In this document: positions 23,668 to 37,670 of the stretch, in pieces
Layout: each line of letters opens with the position of its first letter
Numbering within the stretch: position 1 is the stretch's first letter
Origin: Gammaproteobacteria bacterium
GTDB lineage: Bacteria; Pseudomonadota; Gammaproteobacteria; Ga0077536
DNA: 64,000 nt
Direction of reading: 5' to 3'
NCBI GenBank assembly: GCA_963662545.2
Contig: CAXXLL010000002.1
Location: forward strand, 960,001-1,024,000
Made by a program: the position numbers and the translations under genes
The notes under the pieces: generated by a model
Seen by the model: the letters and a program-made list of their open reading frames with translations, nothing else
Told to the model about the DNA's origin: nothing
Database searches by the model: none

Positions 23668-23775
23668 ACCTAACGTTGGGATAACCTGCAGATTACAGCG
23701 CACTTTGGAGATGTGAGAATACCGGCACGGCGGAAAAGTGCGCTGTATGCTGGCAGGTTGATCCCGTTGTTAGGT
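23668..23775 (-). repeat. attC site (divergent family member)
   Basis: ACCTAAC...GGATAACC...GGTTGATCC...GTTAGGT with an internal stem. Confidence 0.88.
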
Positions 23776-23835
23776 GTATTTTTGATATTCTCTATTTCCT
23801 CTTAGTAACGATCGAAAGCTACGCCGCACAAATTA

Positions 23836-24072
23836 TCAATCCTCTGGTAAGGCGTCGAATTCCTTTTTTTTATTCTCGAACCATTCATTCATCGCGTCGG
23901 GCTTTTGCATAAGGTCTCGCATTTCCTTCATCGCTTTCAGATGGGCTTCATCTTCGCGTTCATACATTTCCATTCCATGTTGTTTGCTCATTTCGGCGAT
24001 TTCGTCGTAAGAGTTGGCTTGAAATTCCGTTTCGCATGCTCCGCCTAGTTGCCTGCAATTCATTGTTTTCAT
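23836..24072 (-). CDS. DUF1059-like small protein (cassette)
   Basis: MKTMNCRQLGGAC..EF.A...EI..MSKQHG; AAGGAGG RBS. Confidence 0.75.
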   Translation of the reverse strand: MKTMNCRQLGGACETEFQANSYDEIAEMSKQHGMEMYEREDEAHLKAMKEMRDLMQKPDAMNEWFENKKKEFDALPED

Positions 24073-24085
24073 TCTTCTGCCTCCT

Positions 24086-24172
24086 TAAGTTCAGCCGCGC
24101 TTGACGGCGGGTGACCGGAGCGGAAGCGCAGGGAGCTCGCGGTCAAGCGTCGGCTGCAACTTTTTGTTCGGT
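24086..24172 (-). repeat. attC site of a different family, lacking its R' box
   Basis: Minus strand ACCGAAC-AAAAA-GTTGCAGCCGACGCTTGAC...GTCAAGCGCGGCTGAACTT with no GTT core after it. Confidence 0.7.
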
Positions 24173-24196
24173 GAATGTTGCATTTCAGTCGTGAAT

Positions 24197-24472
24197 TCAG
24201 GTGCGTTTTTCGACGAGTTTGCCGGCTACATATTTGTGAAGCACGCTCGCCACAAGAGTTTGGTACGGAATGCCTTCTTGTAGAGCACGAGCTTGCAAAG
24301 CTCGGAGATCCCTCGATGAGAGGTGAATATTTATCCGCGTGTCTTTCTTGAACGTGGCTTGGGCATACTCTTTATGACATTCGATTTCCTTGCCGCTGCC
24401 TTTTGATTTTCTGAGCTTTCCTGCATCAAAAGCGTTAAGGATTTCCTTCTCTTTTTTATCGAGCTTACTCAT
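24197..24472 (-). CDS. CopG/RHH antitoxin
   Basis: KKDTRINIHLS..DL..LQARALQEGIPYQTL..SVLHKY. Confidence 0.85.
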   Translation of the reverse strand: MSKLDKKEKEILNAFDAGKLRKSKGSGKEIECHKEYAQATFKKDTRINIHLSSRDLRALQARALQEGIPYQTLVASVLHKYVAGKLVEKRT

Positions 24473-24648
24473 CTGAATTCCCAACATATTGTTTCGTTGC
24501 TTTACGACTCGGAATAATTGTCTTTAGGAAGATCTCATCTTCGTCTTCGATGAACGGAACCAGATACGCGTAGTCTTCGATAATTACAACGGAGATCTTC
24601 TGCCCCGGGTAGCTTCGCTGATTCGGGTGATTGAGGATCGCGACTTCG
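24465..24648 (-). pseudogene. 5'-truncated BrnT-like toxin
   Basis: HPNQ..YPGQ...YAYLVPF......FLKTIIPSRKATK C-terminal half only; fused to an attC half-site. Confidence 0.8.
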
Positions 24649-24696
24649 TTACAAAAAGCGAGCCTGTAAGCGGTCAGGTTGATCCGCTGGTTAGGT
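24649..24696 (-). repeat. attC half-site
   Basis: CTGTAAGCGGTCAGGTTGATCCGCTGGTTAGGT; the left half is deleted. Confidence 0.75.
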
Positions 24697-25080
24697 GTTC
24701 GTATCGCCATGGGTACGCACATAAGAAAAATACCAGAGAGCAGCGAGAAAAATGGCGACCATCGACAGAGTAGTTCCCCATATCATGGCGGGCATAAACC
24801 AAGCAGGGTCCGCTAATGCCTTATGCCATTTTAAACCGGAGCCCATTTGATCGCGAATGGCGGCGACGTTCGCAAGGTTTCGGTTTGTCCCAGTAATTAT
24901 AACTACGGATGAAATTGCATAGATCCAAACTACCGCTCGTGCTAATCCACTAGGAAGCGATTTTCCTGCAAAGTACCCGACAGCCAGTAGCGCCGAAGTT
25001 ACTGATATGAAATTCATAAAGTACGTCATGACAGCGCTCGTCTGCGCCAAAAACAGATCAGCTAACTCGTAATCACTCAT
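24691..25080 (-). CDS. Hypothetical membrane protein with about 3 TM segments (cassette)
   Basis: Three hydrophobic segments; stop codon lies inside the R'' box. Confidence 0.75.
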   Translation of the reverse strand: MSDYELADLFLAQTSAVMTYFMNFISVTSALLAVGYFAGKSLPSGLARAVVWIYAISSVVIITGTNRNLANVAAIRDQMGSGLKWHKALADPAWFMPAMIWGTTLSMVAIFLAALWYFSYVRTHGDTNT

Positions 25081-25094
25081 ACTTTTACTTGAAC

Positions 25095-25354
25095 ACCTAA
25101 CGAGGTTGTAGGAAAAGCCCCACAGACTGAAAATGTGCCAAATTCGGGGGTCTCGATACCATTACCCTAACCGAGATCGTCGCTTACAGAGCGTCGGACG
25201 AGGCCGAATTTCTGAGCGATTATTCGCAACGACTTATCCTACAACCTCAACGCTAGGATAACCGGCGTGTTACAGCAGGCTCCTTTGTGGCGAAAATGCG
25301 CAGGCGCCCCAAAGGAGCCTGCTGTAACACGTCCGGTTGATCCACTGGTTAGGT
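25095..25354 (-). repeat. attC site interrupted by a MITE
   Basis: ACCTAAC (25095-25101), then the 147-bp insert, then AACGCTAGGATAACC...GTTAGGT. Confidence 0.9.
25102..25248. mobile_element. 147-bp MITE
   Basis: 16-bp TIRs GAGGTTGTAGGA(A/T)AAG and a 3-bp AAC target duplication; no ORF. Confidence 0.88.
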
Positions 25355-25355
25355 T

Positions 25356-25649
25356 TCATTTTTGAGGCTTCCGCCAGTAGTTCGGCTCAAGATGAAGGTG
25401 AGCAACGGCAACAATGAGAATTTCTTCGTCAGTTACTTCGTAGATTAACCCGTATTTGAATCGGCGGGTCCTGCACCGGCGGGTGTTTTCGCTGAGCGGC
25501 GCCTAAGCAATCGGGTGTCGTTCTATCCGTTTTGTCGTAGCGCGTACTTCTTCTAGAAACTCTTGACCGAGACCGTCACGCTGATCATTTAGGTACTCAA
25601 TGGCATCTCGGAGTTCTGCGCGAGCCGGATCTAGAAAGCGAACTTTCAA
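25356..25649 (-). pseudogene. RelE/ParE-family toxin pseudogene
   Basis: MKVRFLDPARAEL...GLGQEF...HPIA*AP...RRFKYGLIY...VAVAH; TAG at 25503-25505. Confidence 0.87.
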
Positions 25650-25867
25650 GCGCCTTCCAGATTCGCAAACACTTCATCCGACGAATACGCTTGGATTTCG
25701 CCTGCACGGTAAGCGCGGAGTCGATCTTCCGCCTCCTTCGCCCACAATGCGTCAATGTTCGGGGCAGGTTTGTCGAAGCTGTTCAACAATTCCTCAACCA
25801 GGCCGACGCGCTCGTTAGGCGAAAGACCAAGCGCTTCTCGATAAAGCTTTTTTGCATTCTCAGTCAC
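25646..25867 (-). CDS. Addiction-module antitoxin component
   Basis: ALGLSPNER..LVEELL.S......IDALWAKEAEDR; coupled to the ParE-like gene. Confidence 0.83.
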   Translation of the reverse strand: MTENAKKLYREALGLSPNERVGLVEELLNSFDKPAPNIDALWAKEAEDRLRAYRAGEIQAYSSDEVFANLEGA

Positions 25868-25920
25868 AGGATTTCTCTTCCACGTCCGATAATATAAGTA
25901 TAGACCGGAGTCGAAATGAG

Positions 25921-25939
25921 ACCTAACAGTTAATTAGGG
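25921..25939 (-). other. attI-like or collapsed recombination site within the array
   Basis: ACCTAACAGTTA is identical to the 12 bp at the attI (36113-36124); no attC hairpin here. Confidence 0.6.
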
Positions 25940-26013
25940 AGTGTTGCACTTCACTTGGAAATCTAAGTGTCTCTACTTCGCAGCAAGGACCTTCGGACAG
26001 GGATACGACGCTC

Positions 26014-26622
26014 TCAGACAGATGCATTCTTAGTTTTGACTATCTGTGTTCCCATTAAACGATCGATGAGCCGAACAACCGGTTTGCGTAAAAACACGCC
26101 CACGATAATAGGCCCGACAAACGCGCCAAGCAGAAACCACAGGTTCGATCGAGCGTATTTGAGCGGATATATTTCGTTATTACGTACTCGATATTCAGAA
26201 AGCGATGACCAAGGCGTGTCTCCAACCATAAATACCTGGACGATCTGGCTTTCGTCGCTTTCAGGGAGTACTGAGATGGTCGCACTAGTCTCTCCTCGAC
26301 TCCAATTGCGGGAGGGCGGGTGCTCAGGCAATAAATACTGCACATTGCGGAAGTTCTCTTCGGCCAAATCGGCTCCATATCGATATACATGCGTATCGGA
26401 AGCTTCCTCACCATATTCGGCTATGAATGCGATGTACATCTGGGACGTTTCGTTCGGTTCAACGTCATCGAGGAACCACTTGGCGCTACTATAGTACGCC
26501 GTCCCCGGGCCTACACACGAGCCGATAAACAGCGCGGATAGCACGACGAGTTTTAGGCAGCCGGCAACGAATCGCTTTACGAACCCAATGACTTCTTCCG
26601 ACATTTCTTGCTTCTCAATCAC
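26014..26622 (-). CDS. Hypothetical protein with 2 TM segments (cassette)
   Basis: Hydrophobic N- and C-terminal segments around a soluble domain; low GC. Confidence 0.7.
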   Translation of the reverse strand: MIEKQEMSEEVIGFVKRFVAGCLKLVVLSALFIGSCVGPGTAYYSSAKWFLDDVEPNETSQMYIAFIAEYGEEASDTHVYRYGADLAEENFRNVQYLLPEHPPSRNWSRGETSATISVLPESDESQIVQVFMVGDTPWSSLSEYRVRNNEIYPLKYARSNLWFLLGAFVGPIIVGVFLRKPVVRLIDRLMGTQIVKTKNASV

Positions 26623-26661
26623 TATGTGCGTATCTGAGAGTTTGTCTGCCGGACACTGGAG

Positions 26662-27546
26662 TTACCCAAGAACCGTAGACACGTTCATGGGATTAGGTTG
26701 TAACTCGTAGTTATCGGGGCTGAGATAGCCGAGCGCCGAGTGCCGGCGTTGGCGGTTGTAGAAGATCTCGATGTATTCAAACAGGCCGGCACGGAGTTCA
26801 TCGACCGTGCGGTAGTTCTCCGGATAGATGAGTTCGACCTTCAGGCGGCTGAAGAAGGACTCCATGACGGCGTTGTCCCAGCAGTTCCCCTTGCGGCTCA
26901 TACTCGGTTGAATACCGGAGTCCGTCAATAGTTGTTGGTATTCGTTGCCGCGGTACTGCACGCCACGGTCGGAGTGCAGCAGCAGCCCTTCAGAGATATC
27001 CCGGCGAGACACCGCCATCGTCAGTGCATCGACGATGAGCGTTTCGCGCATGTGGGGCTCAAGTGTCCAGCCGACAATCTTGCGCGAATACAGGTCCAGC
27101 ACCGCAGCGAGATAAGCCCAGGTGCGACCGACCTTGATATAGGTAATGTCAGAGACCCATTTGCGATTCGGCCCGTCGGTGGTGAAGTTCCGGTCGAGCA
27201 GGTTGTCTTTGACCTGCGTCATCGATTCGACCCGCTTCTCGTAGCGGAAGCCTTTGCCGTTCAAGGCCCGCAACTGCAGCGAACGCAGCAATTTGGCCAC
27301 ATAATTTTTGCTGCACGGCACACCGTCTTCAACCAATTCCTTCGTCAGACGCGGCGCCCCATAACGCCGTTTGAAGCGGTAATACAGATAGCTCAGTACC
27401 TGCCGCATCTGCTCACGTCGCCTGGCCTGCTCACTCAGCGGCCGCTTCAGCCAGGCATAAAAGCCCGACCGCGACACCTCTAACACCCGACACATCAGCG
27501 TCACCGGATAGGCACCCCGGTTCTCTGCGATTAAGGCGTACTTCAC
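26662..27546 (-). CDS. IS3 transposase OrfB
   Basis: WVSDITY, HSDRGVQY and CWDNAVMESFF. Confidence 0.93.
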   Translation of the reverse strand: MKYALIAENRGAYPVTLMCRVLEVSRSGFYAWLKRPLSEQARRREQMRQVLSYLYYRFKRRYGAPRLTKELVEDGVPCSKNYVAKLLRSLQLRALNGKGFRYEKRVESMTQVKDNLLDRNFTTDGPNRKWVSDITYIKVGRTWAYLAAVLDLYSRKIVGWTLEPHMRETLIVDALTMAVSRRDISEGLLLHSDRGVQYRGNEYQQLLTDSGIQPSMSRKGNCWDNAVMESFFSRLKVELIYPENYRTVDELRAGLFEYIEIFYNRQRRHSALGYLSPDNYELQPNPMNVSTVLG

Positions 27547-27854
27547 TTGTCGGGGTTGGCAAAGTACGCCGTCGCTTTTTTTAGGAAATCTCGCTCCTGC
27601 TCGAGCTCCGCTACCTTCCTCTTCAGGCGACGGATCTCGGTTTTCTCTTCTTTCGAATAATCTGTGCCGTCCGCCAGCTTGAACTGCTTGTTCGACAGAT
27701 TGTTGAACTGGGCGCGCCAGTTGTAGATCTGACCGGGATGGAGCCCGAGTTCTTTCGCCACCTCGGTCGCCGTACGACCGGGTTGATCAGCTAGGCGAAC
27801 CGCTTCTTGACGGAACGATTCCGGATACGACTGCGTTTTCTTCTTTCTCGGCAT
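27543..27854 (-). CDS. IS3 transposase OrfA
   Basis: HTH; ERDFLKKATAYFA containing an A7G slippery site. Confidence 0.9.
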   Translation of the reverse strand: MPRKKKTQSYPESFRQEAVRLADQPGRTATEVAKELGLHPGQIYNWRAQFNNLSNKQFKLADGTDYSKEEKTEIRRLKRKVAELEQERDFLKKATAYFANPDK

Positions 27855-27921
27855 CGTGACACTTCCAATTGCATCTTAGTACGATGCATTAGGGTGTCTA
27901 CTTTTCGTGGGTAACTCGGGA

Positions 27922-28031
27922 ACCTAACGCAAAGTTAACCGGCGTGTTACAGCCAGCTCCTTTGGGGCGAAAATGCGGAGCCGCCCCAAAGGAGCTGGCT
28001 GTAACACGTCCGGTTCAACGCCTTGTTAGAG
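27922..28031 (-). repeat. attC site
   Basis: 110 bp, ACCTAAC...GTTAGAG, family consensus. Confidence 0.93.
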
Positions 28032-28263
28032 GGCGCTTATATCGCTCGACGTACGAATCGAGAAGACGCCGAATCATTTTCTGATAAGGCGTGTTGCGTC
28101 TCTCGGCCTCGCCTTTGAAGAAATCGACGCTCGATTTACTTAACGAGATCGTGACCTTAACGGTCTCATCTCGGAAAGCAAGTTCGTCTGGCGAGGGCAA
28201 GAAGTCCTCGATGACTTCGATGTCCCCTATAGGTTCATCGGTGTACTTTATTTTCGCGCTCAT
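28015..28263 (-). CDS. CopG/BrnA-like antitoxin
   Basis: DFLPSPDEL...TVKVTISLSK.SVDFFK......PYQKMIRRLLD. Confidence 0.85.
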   Translation of the reverse strand: MSAKIKYTDEPIGDIEVIEDFLPSPDELAFRDETVKVTISLSKSSVDFFKGEAERRNTPYQKMIRRLLDSYVERYKRPLTRR

Positions 28264-28528
28264 AGACTCTCTTACCTTTTCTCCAATATCCGGCGCCAAA
28301 TATTCGGATTACGTTTCGGCGATAGGTGAACCTAACCGTCAAAATCCCTTCACCGGCCTCGCCGAAACAGTAATAACGCTCTTCGGTTTCGCTGCTATGC
28401 GCTAAATCCTTGGCGATGACTCGTTTCGGATCGGCGAATGCGTATTGAGCTTCGGCAAAGAAAATACGGTGTTTCGCTTGATTCTCGGCGTCCTTTTCCG
28501 AGTCCCACTCAAAGCTTTCCTTGCTCAT
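28235..28528 (-). CDS. brnT: BrnT-family toxin
   Basis: FEWDSEK...N..KH.I.F..A...F.DP...EER...ILTVRFTYR...IRI. Confidence 0.9.
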   Translation of the reverse strand: MSKESFEWDSEKDAENQAKHRIFFAEAQYAFADPKRVIAKDLAHSSETEERYYCFGEAGEGILTVRFTYRRNVIRIFGAGYWRKGKRVYERENKVHR

Positions 28529-28534
28529 AGGGTA

Positions 28535-28566
28535 AGTATAGAACTGATATGGCTATATCGCCATAT
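28535..28566 (-). promoter_or_regulatory. TA cassette promoter and operator
   Basis: -10 TATACT 6 nt upstream of the ATG; inverted repeat ATATGGC-N6-GCCATAT. Confidence 0.6.
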
Positions 28567-28599
28567 GAATATGTGGCGCAGAGATGTCTGGTTTCAGCC

Positions 28600-28709
28600 C
28601 TCTAACGCTAGGATAACCTGCGCGTTACAGCGCGCTTCTTTGGAGCGAAAATGCGAAGCCGTTTCAAAGAAGCGCGCTGTAACACGTCAGGTTGATCCTT
28701 TTGTTAGGC
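28600..28709 (-). repeat. attC site
   Basis: 110 bp, CTCTAAC...GTTAGGC. Confidence 0.93.
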
Positions 28710-28719
28710 GGCGCGTACA

Positions 28720-29238
28720 TTAATCTTTTCGTGTGTCCAGAATAGGCATCATATCGATCAGCGAAGGTAGGTCTGGTTCTTCACGAAGATGCCTCTCCAA
28801 TTCGAGCCCAACTTCCTTATCTACTACTTGGATTACTTGAGGCCAGACTTTTCTTCCACCGGGGGTCCTTATAAAGGCTCCCACATATGCCAGCCATGTA
28901 GTGTAGTCCACCTCACTCAATAACCCTTGTTTATGCAAGCTTAGTACGTTCTGTAGTTGTACGACATGCTCTATGAGTAGAAATGTAAATCGTGTCTTTT
29001 CTATCCGATCGAGTTCATCGAAGGATGACAGTCCGCGAGCGTGTACATCAGCCACTTCGCTATTTGTTATCGTAGGATTAACGATACGGTCTCGCGCCCC
29101 GTCCAGCATATTTTGTACCGAAGCCGCTTGAGTAGCACGAGTATTTCCCCGTACTTGAATGGCCAGATACACAACGGATATGACGACTGCTACAGCACTG
29201 ATAATTTCGCCAATTGCCGCCGCTGAATCCAAATTCAT
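28720..29238 (-). CDS. Uncharacterised cassette protein, family X
   Basis: N-terminal TM helix AAIGEIISAVAVVISVVYLAIQVR; EKTRF; TPGGRKVW. Confidence 0.8.
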   Translation of the reverse strand: MNLDSAAAIGEIISAVAVVISVVYLAIQVRGNTRATQAASVQNMLDGARDRIVNPTITNSEVADVHARGLSSFDELDRIEKTRFTFLLIEHVVQLQNVLSLHKQGLLSEVDYTTWLAYVGAFIRTPGGRKVWPQVIQVVDKEVGLELERHLREEPDLPSLIDMMPILDTRKD

Positions 29239-29256
29239 TCCGTGTCTTCCCGTGCC

Positions 29257-29366
29257 GCCTAACGCCAGGATAACCTGCGTGTTACAGCGCGCTTCTTTCG
29301 GGCGAAAATGCGTAGCCGACCTAAAGAAGCGCGCTGTAACACGTCAGGTTGATCCGTTTGTTAGGT
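29257..29366 (-). repeat. attC site
   Basis: 110 bp, GCCTAAC...GTTAGGT. Confidence 0.93.
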
Positions 29367-29375
29367 GAATGTTGC

Positions 29376-30697
29376 GGTACGGACCGGGTAGATAGGTAAC
29401 ATTATAGTCAAGGTACATGGGTGACAGATCAATGGTATTAGGTTCCTCAAAGGAGGAGTCCGATGCCCTGGAGAGAAACGTCACCAATGAACGAAAAAAC
29501 GCAATTCATCGCAGACTATCTGCGCGACCTGTTGACAGTTACCGAGCTGTGCGAACATTACGGCATCAGTCGCAAGACTGGCTACAAATGGATTGATCGG
29601 TATCTAAGCGAAGGTCCGGCGGGTTTAGAGGAACGCACACGGCGGCCTAGAACTTGCCCGCATAAAACGCCGGCGCGGCTCGAGCGCCTGATCATCGATG
29701 CGCGACAACGTCATCCGACTTGGGGCGCTCGTAAATTGCGGACGTTTCTATCGCGGAAGCACCCGCGAGAGCCGTGGCCAACACGGACAACCATTCATGA
29801 CATCCTAATCCGTGAAGGATTCATCCGGACACCGCGGCGCTCACGCAAACTCGGGCATCCGGGAAAACCTGAAACCCGAATGAATGCACCCAACCAAACC
29901 TGGGGCGCCGACTTCAAAGGGCATTTCAAGACCGAAGACGGGCGGTATTGTTACCCGTTGACCGTCACCGATGGCTTTAGTCGATACCTCATCGGATGCC
30001 AGTCATTACTCACGACCGCCGTTGAACCATCGAAGGCGGTGTTCACCCGCTTATTCAAAGAATACGGACTGCCAGAACGCATCCGTACCGACAACGGCGT
30101 CCCCTTCGCGACGAACACGCTCGGTCGATTATCAACGCTGTCTGCCTGGTGGATCAGGCTTGGTATTTATCCCGAGCTCATCGAACCCGGAAAGCCTCAA
30201 CAAAATGGCCGACACGAACGGATGCACCGAACCTTAAAGGCGGAGACGACTCGACCTCCGGCCGGGGACTATCGCGCGCAACAGAAACGATTTAATCGGT
30301 TCCAGATTGAATTCAATGAAGAACGCCCTCATGAAGCGCTCGACATGTTCACACCTGCCGACTTCTACGAATTTTCTGCCAAAGAAATGCCTAGCAAAAT
30401 CCCGCCGCTCGAATATCCTGACCGTTTCATCAAGCGCTTCGTCAGTGCCAACGGTGGCATCCGATGGCATTCCACCCATGTGCCTGTCTCAATCGCGTGT
30501 GCCGGTGAGTACATAGGATTAGAGGAAATCGACTGTGGTGTTTGGAACGTCTATTTCGGAACGCTTAAGCTCGGCCGAATGATTGAAAAATACAATCGGA
30601 TCGAAGATGCTTACGGCCGACTAAAACGACATTATCGATAACAAAAGTGTTACCCATCTACCTTGGCACTTTTGTTACCTTTCTCCCGGTCCGCTCA
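29376..30697 (+). mobile_element. IS481-family insertion sequence
   Basis: IRs CGGACCGGG(T)AGA.AGGTAACA with internal repeats; no TSD seen. Confidence 0.87.
29463..30641 (+). CDS. IS481-family transposase
   Basis: MPWRE start, SRKTGYKW, WGADFKG, TDNGVPF and QNGRHERMHRTLK. Confidence 0.93.
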   Translation: MPWRETSPMNEKTQFIADYLRDLLTVTELCEHYGISRKTGYKWIDRYLSEGPAGLEERTRRPRTCPHKTPARLERLIIDARQRHPTWGARKLRTFLSRKHPREPWPTRTTIHDILIREGFIRTPRRSRKLGHPGKPETRMNAPNQTWGADFKGHFKTEDGRYCYPLTVTDGFSRYLIGCQSLLTTAVEPSKAVFTRLFKEYGLPERIRTDNGVPFATNTLGRLSTLSAWWIRLGIYPELIEPGKPQQNGRHERMHRTLKAETTRPPAGDYRAQQKRFNRFQIEFNEERPHEALDMFTPADFYEFSAKEMPSKIPPLEYPDRFIKRFVSANGGIRWHSTHVPVSIACAGEYIGLEEIDCGVWNVYFGTLKLGRMIEKYNRIEDAYGRLKRHYR

Positions 30698-30926
30698 TTT
30701 GCATCCGGTTCGCATAGTCACGACCAGATGTTGGTGGGGGTAGCGGCTTACCATCCTGTTCGTAGAGTTCAATAGCTTCCTCTACGATTCGACACAATTC
30801 TTCAAAGACTTCTTTTTCGTTTGCTCCGTGACAACCGCCCAACACAAGTCCAGGGGCACTGCCGACATAACACTCGTCTTCGTCAGACCACTCAACAATT
30901 TTCGCGTAACGAGCACTTCCTTTCAT
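30675..30926 (-). CDS. hicB: HicB-like antitoxin (C-terminal residues replaced by IS481 sequence)
   Basis: VEWSDEDECYVG..PGL..GGCHG...GKPLPPP; the tail SGPGER comes from the IS end. Confidence 0.82.
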   Translation of the reverse strand: MKGSARYAKIVEWSDEDECYVGSAPGLVLGGCHGANEKEVFEELCRIVEEAIELYEQDGKPLPPPTSGRDYANRMQMSGPGER

Positions 30927-31120
30927 TTCTTTATCTCCGCGAGCACCTTTTGGACTGCTCGAATCTGATATTCTTTTGCGTCGTCTCCAAGTTTGCCCGA
31001 AATCGTTATGGGATTCGATATATTCGGATGCACAAAGTTTCGATGACTTCCCTTTCCGCCTCGATTCTTAAAGCCTCCGCGCTCCAAGTCGGCAATTAGC
31101 TCTCGGATCTTGGGAGGCAT
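30923..31120 (-). CDS. hicA: HicA toxin
   Basis: LERGGF....GKGSHRNFVHP.....TISG..GDDAK.YQ. Confidence 0.88.
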   Translation of the reverse strand: MPPKIRELIADLERGGFKNRGGKGSHRNFVHPNISNPITISGKLGDDAKEYQIRAVQKVLAEIKK

Positions 31121-31130
31121 TCTGTGTGGC

Positions 31131-31240
31131 GCCTAACGCTAGGATAACCTGCGTGTTACAGCGCGCTTATTTGGAGCGAAAATGCGAAGCCGGTTCAAAG
31201 AAGCGCGCTGTAACACGTCCGGTTGATCCATTGGTTAGGT
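31131..31240 (-). repeat. attC site
   Basis: 110 bp, family consensus. Confidence 0.93.
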
Positions 31241-31699
31241 GGCTGTTTTCTCAAGGTGTTGGTCAACAAATTGCGTAAAGGCATCGCTGAATCTCCATTT
31301 CTGTGCCGACCACCACTTCCGTGCGCCAATGCCTTCGTACGTCTTTAGCGCGCTTTCACGGTAGCCCTCCCATTCTTGACGGGGAAACTTGCCGCTCGAA
31401 GCGGTATAAAACATATATTGAACGGATCGCGACCATGCCCACATGGCGATGTTGAATCTCGCGCGCTCTGCTTCGCTCAATTCCTCATCCGCGATACCCC
31501 TTTCCCACAGTAGCGGAAGATCTGGCTCCGCCATTAAAGAGCAGAGAAAATCTCTCGAAAGCTGTATAGAAAACGAGAAATTCGCGTCGTTCTGCGCGGC
31601 CGTGTTTCGCCTTAGTTCTACGACGAGATATAGGAGGGAAATAACGACGCAGATTACGCCGGCCCCTTCTACCAATACGCCGATGGCTTCCCAATTCAT
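31235..31699 (-). CDS. Uncharacterised cassette protein, family X
   Basis: MNWEAIG..VE.AGV..VVISLLYL..ELRRNT; ERARF; GARKWW. Confidence 0.8.
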   Translation of the reverse strand: MNWEAIGVLVEGAGVICVVISLLYLVVELRRNTAAQNDANFSFSIQLSRDFLCSLMAEPDLPLLWERGIADEELSEAERARFNIAMWAWSRSVQYMFYTASSGKFPRQEWEGYRESALKTYEGIGARKWWSAQKWRFSDAFTQFVDQHLEKTAT

Positions 31700-31714
31700 C
31701 GATTTACTCTGGCC

Positions 31715-31824
31715 ACCTAACGCCAGGATAACCTGCGTGTTACAGCGCGCTTTTTTTGGGCGAAAATGCGGAGCCGACCTAAAGAAGCGCGCTGTAGCAC
31801 GTCAGTTTGATCCGTTTGTTAGGT
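31715..31824 (-). repeat. attC site
   Basis: 110 bp, family consensus. Confidence 0.92.
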
Positions 31825-32115
31825 TGCGGGTTCATTTCGACGCCGATAACTTGTTTCTGGTTTGATTTCGTCAAGAAGGATACCAGAGCGAAACCTCCTT
31901 ACAATCGAATAAGATTTCGGCTTTTTAGGGGCACGAATTGCCTCGCGATCCGAAGACACCATAGCGGCAGTGAATTCCCCCGACTACCTTCCCGGTAGTC
32001 TCGTCGTATTGAACTTAGCACCATAAAATTGCGGCGTGGACCGGAGCCGAATTCATTGGCCTTTTGCCATACTGCGGCGCTTCCGGTGGCCTGTTCGCAA
32101 TGATTTTCTTTCGCA
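31825..32115 (-). other. ORF-less gene cassette (~290 bp)
   Basis: Bounded by two intact attCs with matching ends GTTAGGTTGCG / CGCAACCTAAC; no credible ORF. Confidence 0.75.
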
Positions 32116-32225
32116 ACCTAACGCTAGGATAACCGGCGTGTTACAGCCAGCTCATTTGGGGCGAAAATGCGAAGCCGCCCCAAATGAGCTGGCTGTAACA
32201 CGTCCGGTTGATCCATTTGTTAGGC
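32116..32225 (-). repeat. attC site
   Basis: 110 bp, family consensus. Confidence 0.93.
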
Positions 32226-32267
32226 GGCAGTTTTTCGAACCAATTTCGACCTCTACTTTCATTCCGG

Positions 32268-32783
32268 TTATTCACATCTAAGCCAGTCCAAATCTTCATT
32301 CGCTGGTGTTATATCCAGGTTCGTTTCGTTCAGGCGTCCTTCTATATGAATCGTAAGCGTTTCGGGCGGCAAGTGCTTCCAAGCTTCCCACCATTGACGC
32401 CCTCCAGGTGAAAGCACGAAAGATAAGTACAGACTCTCACTTTTTCTGAAAAGCGCCTCATCTTGGAGCATGCCGCTTTTGTACAGCGTCCAAACTTGAT
32501 AATAGCCGTTCGTAAGCAACTGCATTTTGGAATGAAACACTGCTTTCCCGTTTCGATCTAGTTCGCCGAATCGGCTTAGCCCTTCTCTAAAATTCTCGGC
32601 AGCTTTTTCGTCAGACGTCATAGCAGCATAGGCATCTACGAACTCCTTCACAGCCTCTTTCAACGCCTGCGCCGACTGTTGCCGGTTGTTTTGCCTGATC
32701 TGTACTGACAGATAGCCAAGAGTCGCGACTACAGCTACGACACCAATAATTTCCGCAATAGCGCCGACAGCTTCCCAGTTCAT
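32268..32783 (-). CDS. Uncharacterised cassette protein, family X
   Basis: MNWEAVGAIAEIIGVVAVVATLGYLSVQIRQN; SPGGRQWW. Confidence 0.8.
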   Translation of the reverse strand: MNWEAVGAIAEIIGVVAVVATLGYLSVQIRQNNRQQSAQALKEAVKEFVDAYAAMTSDEKAAENFREGLSRFGELDRNGKAVFHSKMQLLTNGYYQVWTLYKSGMLQDEALFRKSESLYLSFVLSPGGRQWWEAWKHLPPETLTIHIEGRLNETNLDITPANEDLDWLRCE

Positions 32784-32800
32784 AAAAAGTTTCTACTGCC

Positions 32801-32911
32801 GCCTAACGCTAGGATAACCGACGTGTTGCAGCTGGTTTGTTTTCGACGAAAATGCGCAGCACGGCTAAAACAAGCCAGCTGCAACACGGCCGGTTGATCC
32901 ACTGGTTAGGC
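32801..32911 (-). repeat. attC site
   Basis: 111 bp, family consensus with compensatory changes. Confidence 0.92.
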
Positions 32912-33442
32912 GTCATTTTCCTTTGTCCAGTGTTGCGGTTGGTAAAACGGAACGGCCTCAATGATCGACGGCGCATCGGGACCGAGTTCGCTGAGTTTTT
33001 TGTCGAACAGCCCCACGAATCTTGGGTCATATACGGTTTTTACGACTTTCCACCACGAGCGAACGCCGGATGGGCTTAACATCATTATGGTCATCGCCTC
33101 ACGCGACGAATACGTGACATCGTCTATGGCTCCGCGATTCCACAACAGCCAGCAAGTTTCGCACCACCTGATGTAGGCGTGTAGGTATAGATGCGCCCTA
33201 GCTTGTTCTTGGGCGGACAATGATTCCCAATCGCTCGCGGCTCGGACAAAAACGCGTGTTAGTTCTTCATCATCGCGAAGATCTTGGACAAGATCTTTTT
33301 CGGTGTTGTTAATCTCGATAATCGCATCGCCATGCAACTGGTTCGTGTGTTGACGTATCTGGGTCGCTAGGTATAACAGTGTGACGACTGTTGCTACCGC
33401 TGCGAGGATTTCTCCAACGCTGCCGAGGTCTTGAATGGTCAT
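32906..33442 (-). CDS. Uncharacterised cassette protein, family X
   Basis: MTIQDLGSVGEILAAVATVVTLLYLATQIRQ; EQARA; PSGVRSWW. Confidence 0.8.
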   Translation of the reverse strand: MTIQDLGSVGEILAAVATVVTLLYLATQIRQHTNQLHGDAIIEINNTEKDLVQDLRDDEELTRVFVRAASDWESLSAQEQARAHLYLHAYIRWCETCWLLWNRGAIDDVTYSSREAMTIMMLSPSGVRSWWKVVKTVYDPRFVGLFDKKLSELGPDAPSIIEAVPFYQPQHWTKENDA

Positions 33443-33465
33443 AGGACGAATGTAATCGTAATGAC

Positions 33466-33575
33466 GCCTAACGCTAGGATAACCTGCGTGTTACAGCGTG
33501 CTTCTTTTTAGCGAAAATGCGAAGCTGCTGAAAAGAATCACGCTGTAACACGTCAGGTTGATCCATTTGTTAGGT
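33466..33575 (-). repeat. attC site
   Basis: 110 bp, family consensus. Confidence 0.93.
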
Positions 33576-33710
33576 GGCGGGGCGATTAACGAAGCCTGGG
33601 CCATATTTCTTTTGCATTTGACAGAGGTGGACCCCGGCGGTTGGACAGAGAACAGGAGCTGATAAGTGGAATCTTCTAGCTTAGGAATCTCGTGAGAGAA
33701 GGAGCAGAAG

Positions 33711-34001
33711 ATGACCCGAAGAAAGCGACGTAATCACGCATCGGCGTTCAAGGCCAAGGTCGCTCTGGCGGCGGTGAAGGGCGAACGCACACGGGCCGAG
33801 CTGGCCGAGCAGTTCGACGTTCATCCTAATCAGAGCCAGGACTGGAAGAAGCGCCTGGTGGAAGGCGCCGAGGACGTGTTTGGCGTGAACGCTGTGGAGG
33901 CCCAGCACAACGAAAAGGGGGTAGAGAAGCTCCACGCCAAGATCGGGCAGTTGGCGATGGAGAACGATTTTTTATCCACAGTGCTCGGGCGCGACCGATG
34001 A
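33711..34001 (+). CDS. IS3 transposase OrfA
   Basis: RRNHASAFKAKVALAA; KIGQLAMENDFL. Confidence 0.9.
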   Translation: MTRRKRRNHASAFKAKVALAAVKGERTRAELAEQFDVHPNQSQDWKKRLVEGAEDVFGVNAVEAQHNEKGVEKLHAKIGQLAMENDFLSTVLGRDR

Positions 34002-34843
34002 GCGAGCGCCGGCAACAAATTCACACAGCGCATAAGGTGCCCAGGACGCGGCGCTGCGAATTGCTCGAGGTGGCACGCTCGAGCGCGTACTACCGTCCCG
34101 AGCCGGTCAGCGAGACAGATCTGATGCTGATGCGGCTGATCGACGAGATCCACCTGCAGTGGCCGTTTTACGGCCGTCGGCGGATCCGCGACGAACTGGA
34201 AGATCGCGGCCATGTGGTCAACCGCAAGCGGGTCCAACGTCTGATGCGTCAGATGGATTTGAGGGCTTTGTATCCACGACGCCGAACGAGCCAGTCCGGG
34301 AAGGGACACAAGATCTACCCGTACCTGCTCAGGGATCTGGCTATCGAACGGCCGAACCAGGTCTGGGCGAGCGACATCTGCTACCTCCCGATGGCCAGAG
34401 GGTTCATGTACCTGGTGGCCATCATGGACTGGCATTCGCGCCGGGTGCTGTCGTGGCGCGTGTCGAACACGTTGGATACGGACTTCTGTATCGAGGCGCT
34501 GGAAGAGGCCCTGCAGCGTTTCGGCGCGCCGGAAATCTTCAACACCGATCAGGGGTCCCAGTTTACCTCCGAGGCGTTCACCGGCGTACTCAAAGACCAG
34601 GGCATCAAGATCAGCATGGATGGCAAGGGGCGCTGGGTGGACAACGTGTTCGTTGAACGGCTCTGGCGCAGCGTGAAATATGAGGACGTATACTTACGCG
34701 CCTATGCAACGCCAACCGAGCTTCGTGTCGGATTGGACCGGTACTTCAAGTTCTACAACACTAAGCGCCGTCACAGCGCGCTGGACCGACGCACCCCGGA
34801 TGCGGTGTACTTCGATTTGGCTGGCCGCACGTTGGCAGCCTGA
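33998..34843 (+). CDS. IS3 transposase OrfB
   Basis: WASDICY, NTDQGSQFTS and DNVFVERLWRSVKYE. Confidence 0.93.
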   Translation: MSERRQQIHTAHKVPRTRRCELLEVARSSAYYRPEPVSETDLMLMRLIDEIHLQWPFYGRRRIRDELEDRGHVVNRKRVQRLMRQMDLRALYPRRRTSQSGKGHKIYPYLLRDLAIERPNQVWASDICYLPMARGFMYLVAIMDWHSRRVLSWRVSNTLDTDFCIEALEEALQRFGAPEIFNTDQGSQFTSEAFTGVLKDQGIKISMDGKGRWVDNVFVERLWRSVKYEDVYLRAYATPTELRVGLDRYFKFYNTKRRHSALDRRTPDAVYFDLAGRTLAA

Positions 34844-34994
34844 AACCTAAGGAAGATTTCACTTACGGCACTGTCCAAGTTTCGGGGTCCATTTCTGACA
34901 GCGTGTTTAGTTGCACTTTACTTGGAAATCTAAGCAGCATATTGCACATCACACATCATTATCACAGTGAAAGTAGCAACTGTTGTAACTCTAT

Positions 34995-35408
34995 CTAAAG
35001 AACACACTTCAACAGGCCGCCAAATCCCCAGATGATTGTGCCACCGATTAGGATTGCCGCATAAACGCTAGCGACACGCTTTTCGCTACTTTCTTTCTGT
35101 CTAAGTACAAATCTCTTCGCATGTGCAACGGTTCCCGACGCCTCTTCTTCAATCTCGGCGTCGCTTGCCGCCATCTCGATACTGTCTTTTTTGGTTTCTA
35201 AATCAGATATAACTCCTTCGAATCCCTTTGCATAGAGTGTATTGATTTCTAGATATCCGAAAAATATTCCTACGCAAACAATTAGGGCTCCTGACCGTGA
35301 AAAGAAATCGGGCCAAAGCCAAATAAATTCGGCTATGAGTCCAAAAGCGGCAAAGATTATCGCCGCTCCAATCGCCAGTTTCTCTTCGCTATAGAATTTA
35401 GCGGTCAC
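34995..35408 (-). CDS. Hypothetical membrane protein (cassette)
   Basis: F.RSGAL motif, TM helices, C-terminal GTIIWGFG. Confidence 0.72.
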   Translation of the reverse strand: MTAKFYSEEKLAIGAAIIFAAFGLIAEFIWLWPDFFSRSGALIVCVGIFFGYLEINTLYAKGFEGVISDLETKKDSIEMAASDAEIEEEASGTVAHAKRFVLRQKESSEKRVASVYAAILIGGTIIWGFGGLLKCVL

Positions 35409-35439
35409 TGGTCACCCTTGGTCTGAAATATTTTATGCC

Positions 35440-35548
35440 ACCTAACGCTAGGATAACCGGCGTGTTACAGCTGGCTCATTTGGAGTGAAAATGCGCAGCC
35501 GCTTCAAATGAGCCAGCTGTAAACGTCCGGTTGATCCTTTTGTTAGGT
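35440..35548 (-). repeat. attC site
   Basis: 109 bp, family consensus with a 1-nt deletion. Confidence 0.92.
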
Positions 35549-36266: not shown

Positions 36267-37670
36267 ATGGGCACTTCGCTTTCGCATCCTGGCGTTCCCG
36301 GATTCTGGGACCGCTTCATCGTAATTGCCGGCTCGCTGGAGCTTACTCGGAAACAGCTGCGCTGGCACGTACGGCGTGCCGAGCACTATTTGCGGGCGTA
36401 TCCCGACAAGCTCGTGACCGAGCACCAGGCCACCGATGTGAGCGCGTACCTGTCGGAATTAGGCAGAAGAACCGGGATAGAGCCATGGCAGTTCGTCCAG
36501 AGCGTGGATGCTATACGGACCCTGTTCGAGACAGTGGGTGATCTTGGTTGGCCGGGTAGGTTCGACTGGGACTATTGGAAGGGCAGTGCACGTTAGCTCG
36601 AGCCCTCGCACGCGACCATCGCCCGCGAGGCTGACGGGCCCGCGCGGCCCATATTGGCGCGGGTCGAGGACCGGGCCGAGCGAGGGTGGATGGACAATAT
36701 CCGTGCGGCCCATGGCGAGGTGATTCGTCGTCTGATCACGCAGATCCGCCGGCGTGCCTATTCGATCAGGACCGAACAGGCCTATGAGCTCTGGTTGTGC
36801 CGCTTCATCCGCTTTACCGGGACTGACGATCCCGCAGTGCTCGGTGGGGGTGAGGTCATTCGCTTTCTGGAGTACCTTGCCGTCGAACGCCGCGTCGCGG
36901 TGAGCACGCAGAACCAGGCGTTCAATGCACTGGTATTCTTTTACAACAATGTGCTCGAACTCCCACTCGGTGAACTCGGCGGTTTTAAGCGGGCGAAGCG
37001 CCCGCGTCGATTGCCCGTGGTGCTGACCCGCGAAGAGGTGCGCAGACTGCTTGCTGGAATCGACGGCCTGCATGGCCTGATGGCGCGTCTTATCTATGGC
37101 ACGGGCATGCGTCTGATGGAATGCATCCGCCTGCGAGTCCAGGACATCGATTTCGATTACCGGCAAATCGTGATCCGGAATGCGAAGGGTGCAAAGGACC
37201 GGCTCGTCCCGCTGCCCGGCGTTTTGATTGAAACGATGCGTAAGCATCTCGCGGACGTCCGGGCGACGCATCTCGAAGATCTCGACCGGGGCCTCGGCGT
37301 GGTCTACCTGCCCGATGCACTGGACCGCAAGTATCCCAACGCCGCGCGCGAATGGATATGGCAGTACGCGTTTCCGAGTGGGCGCCTTTCCGTCGACCCG
37401 CGTTCGGGCCGAACCCGCCGCCATCATATTCACGAGAACAGCCTGCAGAAGGCGGTCAAGCGTGCGGCGCAGGCTGCAGCCGTCAGCAAGAAGGTCAGCA
37501 CGCATACGCTGCGCCACTCGTTTGCGACGCATCTGCTCGAATCGGGCTACGACATCCGCACGGTGCAGGAGTTGCTAGGCCACGCGGACGTATCAACGAC
37601 GATGATTTACACCCACGTACTGAACCGTGGTGGCAAAGGAGTGCAAAGCCCGCTGGATAAGCTCGGGTGA
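36267..37670 (+). pseudogene. intI: Long-form integron integrase with an in-frame TAG at 36594-36596 (the downstream core 36654-37670 is an open ORF)
   Basis: [15 protein letters not shown], IntI-specific insertion [48 protein letters not shown]; both ORFs are in the same frame. Confidence 0.92.

Follow-up and report, generated by a model that had tools for sequence, protein, structure and literature searches.

A distal attC site of a gammaproteobacterial integron is interrupted by a 147-bp MITE, inserted exactly at the triplet that the integron integrase cuts. The ends of this small element also bound larger elements that encode a DDE transposase; both kinds of element occupy the same target, many of the occupied targets are attC sites, and the orientation of insertion is fixed. 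We consider it likely that the MITE is a deletion derivative that kept only the ends of an insertion sequence (IS) of the IS1182 family, and that the DDE transposase of this clade inserts site-specifically, in fixed orientation, at the R' core of attC. The IS1182 parentage of the MITE itself is suggested by its ends and its target. Below, "the window" is the whole stretch of 64,000 nucleotides that was analysed, and positions without a contig name refer to it; the genome from which it comes is called G000.

The interrupted attC site

The features of the window that matter here are as follows (strand after the coordinates).

23672 to 35548, plus (attC bottom strand, all): cassette array with 13 attC matches of the covariance model R1
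24691 to 25080, minus: ORF of the cassette whose start is the interrupted R' site; this cassette adjoins the element downstream on the cassette strand
25095 to 25101, plus: R' core box ACCTAAC of the attC bottom strand; AAC at 25099-25101 is the first copy of the triplet, and the predicted single-strand fold has the box paired to GTTAGGT (25348-25354)
25102 to 25248, plus: 147-bp MITE of family 1, with inverted ends at 25102-25117 (left) and 25233-25248 (right)
25249 to 25251, plus: second copy of AAC, the target-site duplication (possibly AACG, 25249-25252)
25249 to 25354, plus: remaining attC sequence on the bottom strand, comprising L', the variable region, L'' (bulged T and G) and R'' (GTTAGGT); matched by R1
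36723 to 37664, plus: integron integrase gene intI (TIGR02249, 462.5 bits against a cut-off of 265), divergent from the array; the same as G000:C2:996723-997664

The host site is a genuine attC: it forms an imperfect hairpin with R and L boxes and bulged bases, and lies in an array of 13 co-oriented matches accompanied by intI. The element thus occupies a distal attC of a complete integron. R1, which was trained solely on attC sites of other genomes, matches 25249-25354 with 33.1 bits (E 2.5e-5), the first position of the model (AAC) falling on the base right after the element's end, and the next match past the interrupted site lies at 24588-24696. The attC palindrome was also recovered by the repeat finder (25266-25292/25305-25331, with the outer pair ACCTAACGAG/CTGGTTAGGT). 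The ORF at 24691-25080 begins 14 nt past GTTAGGT; the minus strand is therefore the cassette strand of this array, on which the duplicated triplet corresponds to the GTT of R'. By eye, the cassette upstream of the interrupted attC (25355-25650, minus strand) resembles a toxin gene of RelE/ParE type that contains an in-frame stop, and no ORF of at least 50 aa is listed there. Elsewhere the genome carries a second intI (C3:1527239-1528180) and several attC clusters devoid of an integrase gene.

The inverted arms of the element, GAGGTTGTAGGAAAAG and CTTATCCTACAACCTC, are 16 nt long, pair at 15 of 16 positions (94%) and enclose 115 nt, and the window reads ..TGAACACCTAAC / GAGGTTGTAGGAAAAG ... CTTATCCTACAACCTC / AACGCTAGGATAACCGGCGTGTTACAG.. 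across it. In an alignment with three uninterrupted attC sites from this array (..ACCTAACGCTAGGATAACC..), the interrupted site (..ACCTAAC, then 147 bp + AAC, then GCTAGGATAACC..) contains exactly 150 bp of extra DNA, cleanly inserted and with AAC duplicated. Sequence and alignment agree on this point with the initial annotation, which had described an element with 16-bp TIRs that duplicates AAC at the R' triplet. Since the element starts with G and every target has a G after AAC, the duplication can be read as 3 bp (AAC, with symmetric ends) or as 4 bp (AACG, one of the ends then being shorter by a base); a single site elsewhere (L236), which reads TGTT..GTTA, favours the former. We call the element a MITE given its small size, its several copies, its lack of a transposase, the TIRs kept in six copies and the direct target duplication. 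The TIR motif alone is weak, with two matches in the window against 0.38 expected and two or more in 6 of 100 shuffles, and the strength of the TIR case comes from the family data described below, not from the motif count in the window.

No sigma-70-like promoter was found in 24900-25500, no Rfam family reached its gathering score within the window, and R1 had no match inside 25102-25248. The composite site is predicted to fold into a three-way junction in which ACCTAAC is still paired to GTTAGGT (-74 kcal/mol, z -10.6); the end of the element together with AAC reads ACCTCAAC, which exceeds the original ACCTAAC by one base. Contigs of three other runs, X3, X5 and X7, span 24700-25136 with no difference and so contain the filled left junction. 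Among the contigs of these three runs no empty site was seen and none joins across the element, contigs being unable to reveal rare empty sites. The region 24700-25700 is present in runs of nine studies, some of them labelled sponge metagenome, and its attC part is covered many times more deeply than the flanks, as a repeat should be.

Copies of the 147-bp family

Five copies reside in G000, at 100, 98, 80, 77 and 74% identity, and each of them lies between YAAC and AACG. They differ by up to 26%, their flanks beyond the attC are unrelated, and four of the five show GAGGG at the left end. Four copies lie in attC sites of the type found in this genome, two of them (m2 and m4) only 690 bp apart. 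Copy 5 (C3:1843345-1843491) follows a pilT-like gene, at GTC-GTT-GGGC and beside a weak hairpin. The attC that holds copy 3 has a second insertion of about 89 bp (G000:C3:1949545-1949633) with an 11-bp direct repeat, GGTTATCCTAG, on its flanks.

A search of 60 relatives yielded one genome, of another, related genus, with a 73% copy at the same position in an attC of unrelated sequence, again between YAAC and AACG. Four more members of the family sit at ..YAAC/AACG.. in MAGs labelled Binatia (two), Deltaproteobacteria and Gammaproteobacteria.

A TIR search of G000 found no long element with family-1 ends, and no transposase of the full-length clade was found in that genome, the best match there reaching 31% identity over part of the protein only. 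Since G000 holds no matching transposase, its five copies are probably immobile orphans or relics, or else they moved before a helper was lost. Copies within one genome may also not be independent, as GTT on both sides could let the integrase or homologous recombination re-assort their flanks.

Full-length relatives encode IS1182-type transposases

Scanning 185,579 species genomes with a TIR consensus blind to flanks returned at least 119 stretches, 80 loci of which were examined. Outside the 84 TIR matches at these 80 loci stand TAAC (24), CGTT, which is the opposite side of the same site (26), GTT (2) or another sequence (32), this last group consisting mostly of variant TIRs that have no partner end. 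Seven elements of 1747-1909 bp, in six other genomes, have both ends, the same target and open frames of 508-550 aa (one of them broken). They belong to a Thiobacillus MAG, a Nitrospirota MAG (two copies), Mangrovitalea sediminis, Halomonas socia (whose frame is the broken one), a gammaproteobacterial MAG and Billgrantia endophytica. Because only 19-22 terminal bases are common to the MITE and these elements, we infer its descent from them by the ends and the target alone.

Proteins of 508-523 aa from these elements were compared with the NCBIfam model of the IS1182 family (NF033551, cut-off 270): the transposase of L103 scores 274.9 bits and that of L147 268.6, which is 1.4 below the cut-off. 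These two proteins share 42% identity, and their kinship with the IS1182 transposase of G000 is only distant. Their homologues contain the Pfam domains PF05598, PF01609 and PF13751, and the top 120 carry generic names only. One sub-clade accounts for at least 571 confirmed transposase stretches in a single metagenome collection. A Pseudoalteromonas piscicida copy (43% identical) is inserted at ..CAACGGC-GTT/IS/GTT-ATAT.., the end of an attC, and an IMG/VR contig holds one MITE with the same ends and the same flanks.

These results uphold what the initial annotation had proposed, namely a non-autonomous, DDE-type element with ends like those of IS5 or IS1182 types: the element is 147 bp long and multi-copy in a genome that holds no matching transposase, and its 19-22 terminal bases bound transposase-bearing elements. 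Autonomous elements with the same ends, of the kind that the initial annotation wished to see sought, were found in other genomes, and none was found in G000.

In a Betaproteobacteria MAG, a 1572-bp element (L096, 6159-7730) has similar ends (GAGGATGTAGG) at a different palindromic site (GAGCCCGT./.ACGGGCTC), which suggests that relatives of this IS group commonly pick palindromic targets.

Target and orientation

Target preference was assessed at 80 metagenome loci picked by similarity to the Mangrovitalea transposase alone (71-88% identity). Both ends were seen in 69 of the 80, which correspond to 62 distinct sites; GTT stands on both sides at 59 of these, and CGTT..GTTA at 55. Likewise, a search of five named genomes with the 15-nt TIR alone gave 25 distinct ends, every one of them flanked by TAAC (12), CAAC (1) or CGTT (12). 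Just outside the duplication, before TAAC, the bases G-C-C occur at 18, 16 and 21 of 24 sites, as in the canonical R' box. In bottom-strand terms the target reads ..(G)CYTAAC^G..; seen on the cassette strand, it is C-GTT-R. The conserved positions form a contiguous G-C-C-T-A-A-C-G, and the other arm of the hairpin is not conserved.

At the transposase-picked loci, all 69 attC matches (69/69) lie on the strand opposite the transposase gene, which is therefore co-oriented with the cassettes. The ten members of the 147-bp family (five in G000, one in the other genus and four in other MAGs) all have one orientation relative to attC, and in the five named genomes each end type always goes with the same flank. 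L093 and L147 are arranged opposite to the L103 group, and the clade thus comprises two sub-clades of opposite orientation.

How many targets are attC sites

Aligned from the AAC copy, 12 flanks of other genomes fit the arms of an attC, with 93.6% of cells paired and 6 of 13 pairs changed on both sides. None of 500 shuffles did as well, and slid controls paired at 16-47%. Bulged T and G are present on the 3' arm, as in attC bottom strands. The structure of this alignment was set by hand from one folded site, which favours that structure; slid controls and shuffles scored far lower. R1 was built from these 12 sites. RNAalifold, run on an earlier alignment of 18 sequences, returned no structure.

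R1 matches 24 of 58 distinct transposase-picked sites within 3 nt of the element's end (14 at E <=0.05). The flanks of the same loci give 42 further matches, about 700 other CGTTR sites being counted there, so that R1 recognises 41% of occupied sites against at most 6% of control CGTTR sites. The model also adjoins ten TIR ends outside its training set. A strict fold test was positive at 25 of 54 transposase-picked sites, and one or the other of these two crude tests identifies an attC at 42 loci of roughly 60; the rest are recognised by neither, and many test-negative sites look by eye like members of a long attC family. As a small model, R1 has low sensitivity, with no match at copy 5, at L039 or at the attC of copies m2, m3 and m4.

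In the genome set, 16 of 29 two-ended elements passed the fold test (one doubtful), and 12 of the 29 reached -15 kcal/mol, against 38 of 294 control sites. Occupied sites also differ from controls in median constrained-fold score (-14.6 vs -9.2, p ~1e-6) and in median arm duplex energy (-9.0 vs -6.9, p ~1e-5). These energy scores separate the two groups only weakly. With controls drawn from the very arrays under study, real attC sites among them, the covariance model is preferred. Self-similarity of the flanking attC sites within each locus gave 0-3 matches and was uninformative. In G000 itself only 30 of 214 CCTAACG sites are attC-like, yet four of the five copies are in attC (binomial 0.0017).

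Other MITE families and rejected partners in the genome

G000 is very IS-rich, with 108 matches of DDE_Tnp_1 and 41 of IS6-type domains. A profile of the five family-1 copies led to a second MITE family of about 157 bp with ends TATTGTGTTGAAAAAGTC, whose copies include G000:C2:76212-76347, C2:76838-76973, C2:445165-445293 and C3:2555822-2555950. It shares an inner core of about 100 bp with family 1; its terminal bases are different and match those of another IS1182 element, so that one MITE "chassis" seems to carry ends for two transposases. Family 2 has an autonomous partner in the genome, at C2:1713459-1715080; this element of 1622 bp shares its ends and encodes a 465-aa protein of the IS1182 family (NF033551, 413 bits). 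Most family-2 copies adjoin another repeat of about 70 bp, AGGTCGTCAGCGGCC...CGTAAGCGGTCG.

MITEs of 159-160 bp with ends GAGGCTGTGTCAAAAG are always found at GGCC, in the centre of a palindromic repeat (..CGGCnnnnnnGGCC/GGCCnnAAGCCG..); 13 copies are listed, for instance C2:449759-449917, C2:661253-661411 and C3:165501-165659. They make up a second site-specific family with IS1182-like ends. The TIR search further revealed a family of 161 bp with a YTAR duplication.

Several candidates for the autonomous partner of the 147-bp element were discarded. A fragment adjoining a family-2 MITE pointed to an IS6 element, which has ends of its own (GGTTCTGTCAGG) and had merely inserted into a MITE; none of the 41 IS6 matches has the MITE ends. 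Next to m2 and m4, the DDE fragment C2:431397-432023 derives from an unrelated transposase, is truncated and lacks the MITE ends, and PF13586 had no match in G000. The 1248-bp IS3-family elements within attC stems are not partners either. Such an element (1248/1249 bp, with two frames and an A-rich slippery stretch) lies at the same position in the stems of two attC sites (G000:C3:1920400-1921650 and C3:1942105-1943352), and in contigs of two runs a loose end at 25326 of the window runs into the end of this same IS3-family element.

Mode of insertion and alternative explanations

A sequence-specific, asymmetric target, the R' core of attC, is the best reading of these data, with the MITE presumably mobilised in trans. 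A full-length relative would supply the transposase, which would make a staggered cut around AAC and thereby lead to duplication of the AAC/GTT triplet, the one cut by the integrase. Because the insertion restores a GTT to its left and to its right, one of these triplets may remain open to cutting by the integrase. In that case the element could move along with a cassette, forming the tail of the attC upstream or the leader of the cassette downstream. Such travel would fit the presence of the 147-bp family in distant lineages.

The same transposon might instead recognise its target as the folded, single-stranded bottom strand of attC rather than as a short duplex sequence, a structure-specific choice of the kind proposed for IS1111-attC elements and group IIC-attC introns. 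The orientation is fixed with respect to the attC strand, whether judged from the 69 matches, from the ten MITEs or from the constant flank of each end type in the five genomes, and insertion into attC is commoner than a motif of 6-7 nt predicts, both of which favour folded-strand recognition. We nevertheless hold this serious alternative to be rather unlikely, for the conserved positions are contiguous and confined to one arm, several sites have no attC fold in the tests, and the sub-clade of L093 and L147 is oriented opposite to the L103 group. Moreover, duplex DNA is the usual substrate of DDE transposases that have inverted ends and make a duplication.

Another explanation dispenses with transposition: the 150 bp (element plus one GTT) would be an ORF-less pseudo-cassette moved by IntI, and the apparent duplication would be the GTT found at every cassette junction. 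Cassette insertion by IntI does leave GTT on both sides, every copy is at the IntI cut point, and IntI can use secondary GTT sites, which could account for copy 5. The element, however, has no attC of its own, its inverted ends have no conserved AAC...GTT pair (the left end being GAGGG in four of the five copies) and the same ends bound elements that encode DDE transposases. In addition, related MITE families of G000 with similar ends, one of which has an IS1182 partner, make 4-bp duplications at non-attC sites (GGCC, YTAR). Given the lack of an attC and the ends that belong to transposase-bearing elements, movement by the integrase alone is very improbable. Finally, an element with no target preference could have entered a single attC by chance and been copied afterwards by duplication or recombination of attC DNA. 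The attC sites of G000 are near-identical repeats among which recombination is plausible, and m2 and m4 are close neighbours. To this scenario we give almost no credence, as the same site is occupied in attC of unrelated sequence in other genera and phyla, in transposase-picked loci and in the five genomes searched with no reference to flanks, and as the copies of G000 differ among themselves by up to 26% and have unrelated flanks beyond the attC. The initial annotation had supposed that the element may target attC, and that copies at random sites with unrelated duplications would point to chance; the AAC/GTT site at 5/5 copies in the genome, 59/62 transposase-picked sites and 25/25 ends in five genomes bears out the former and speaks against a chance insertion.

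Relation to known attC-targeting elements

IS1111-attC elements are not known to make a classical duplication. The element described here has TIRs and a 3-bp duplication, and its full-length relatives encode a DDE transposase of IS1182 type, not a DEDD transposase guided by seekRNA. Its specific insertion into attC in one orientation resembles that of the IS1111-attC group as shared behaviour, not as shared ancestry. According to the relevant part of PMC11187229, members of that group (ISPa21, ISKpn4, ISPst6 and relatives) have a single specific insertion point, near one end of attC, which they enter in fixed orientation, and have a DEDD transposase guided by a seekRNA, together with subterminal repeats. 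They are the only IS examples cited as "targeting attC sites" in the corresponding section of PMC12444791. Group IIC-attC introns also invade attC and separate a cassette gene from its attC, as outlined in parts of PMC8876359 and PMC3001079. These introns are retroelements with a ribozyme and a reverse transcriptase, whereas our element is 147 bp of DNA with inverted ends and matches no Rfam family.

The likeness to the IS1182 family lies in the match of the full-length relatives to NF033551, and a separate IS1182 element of G000 has similar ends (TATTGTGTTGAAAAA) and a MITE family of its own. IS1182-type members in G000 and in a relative are different in that they duplicate 4 bp, at sites other than attC. 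Integron-associated MITEs (IMU, and the Acinetobacter MITEs that flank class 1 integrons) are likewise small non-autonomous elements with inverted repeats. Those MITEs are located on either side of whole integrons or cassettes, which they mobilise as composite units, whereas the element described here interrupts the attC core itself, on the crossover triplet, and is part of a site-specific lineage. It also differs from a gene cassette in having no R''-L''...L'-R' arms of its own.

In the literature searched, only IS1111-attC elements and group IIC-attC introns are named as attC-specific, and no report of attC targeting by the IS1182 family was found; a named IS bearing an attC note is possible in ISfinder, which lay outside the search. 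The group of attC-homing IS1182-type elements is thus apparently undescribed. More tentatively, and with doubt weighing slightly the heavier, we propose that a large IS1182-family clade that has no specific database name, together with several MITE lineages that it would mobilise, is a dedicated, orientation-specific parasite of attC at the triplet cut by the integrase, which, by restoring GTT on both sides, may be carried along by the integrase within a cassette. Such elements would add a third kind to the mobile elements specific to attC, and would be the first among them to use a DDE transposase.

Concluding remarks

If true, this proposal would account for the occurrence of a single 147-bp MITE family in attC sites of MAGs labelled Binatia, Deltaproteobacteria and Gammaproteobacteria as well as in the present genome. 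Integrons are the main gene-capture system of many bacteria, and attC sites are the sole handles by which their cassettes are moved. A third attC-homing kind of element, common in marine and soil bacteria, would change the reading of cassette arrays: cassettes may be frozen, fused or re-partitioned when the crossover triplet is hit, annotation tools may fail to call the attC, and the homology so introduced may allow arrays to rearrange. The DDE transposase of this clade is further of interest for its natural target of about 8 bp, entered in a specific orientation, which is unusual for its family.
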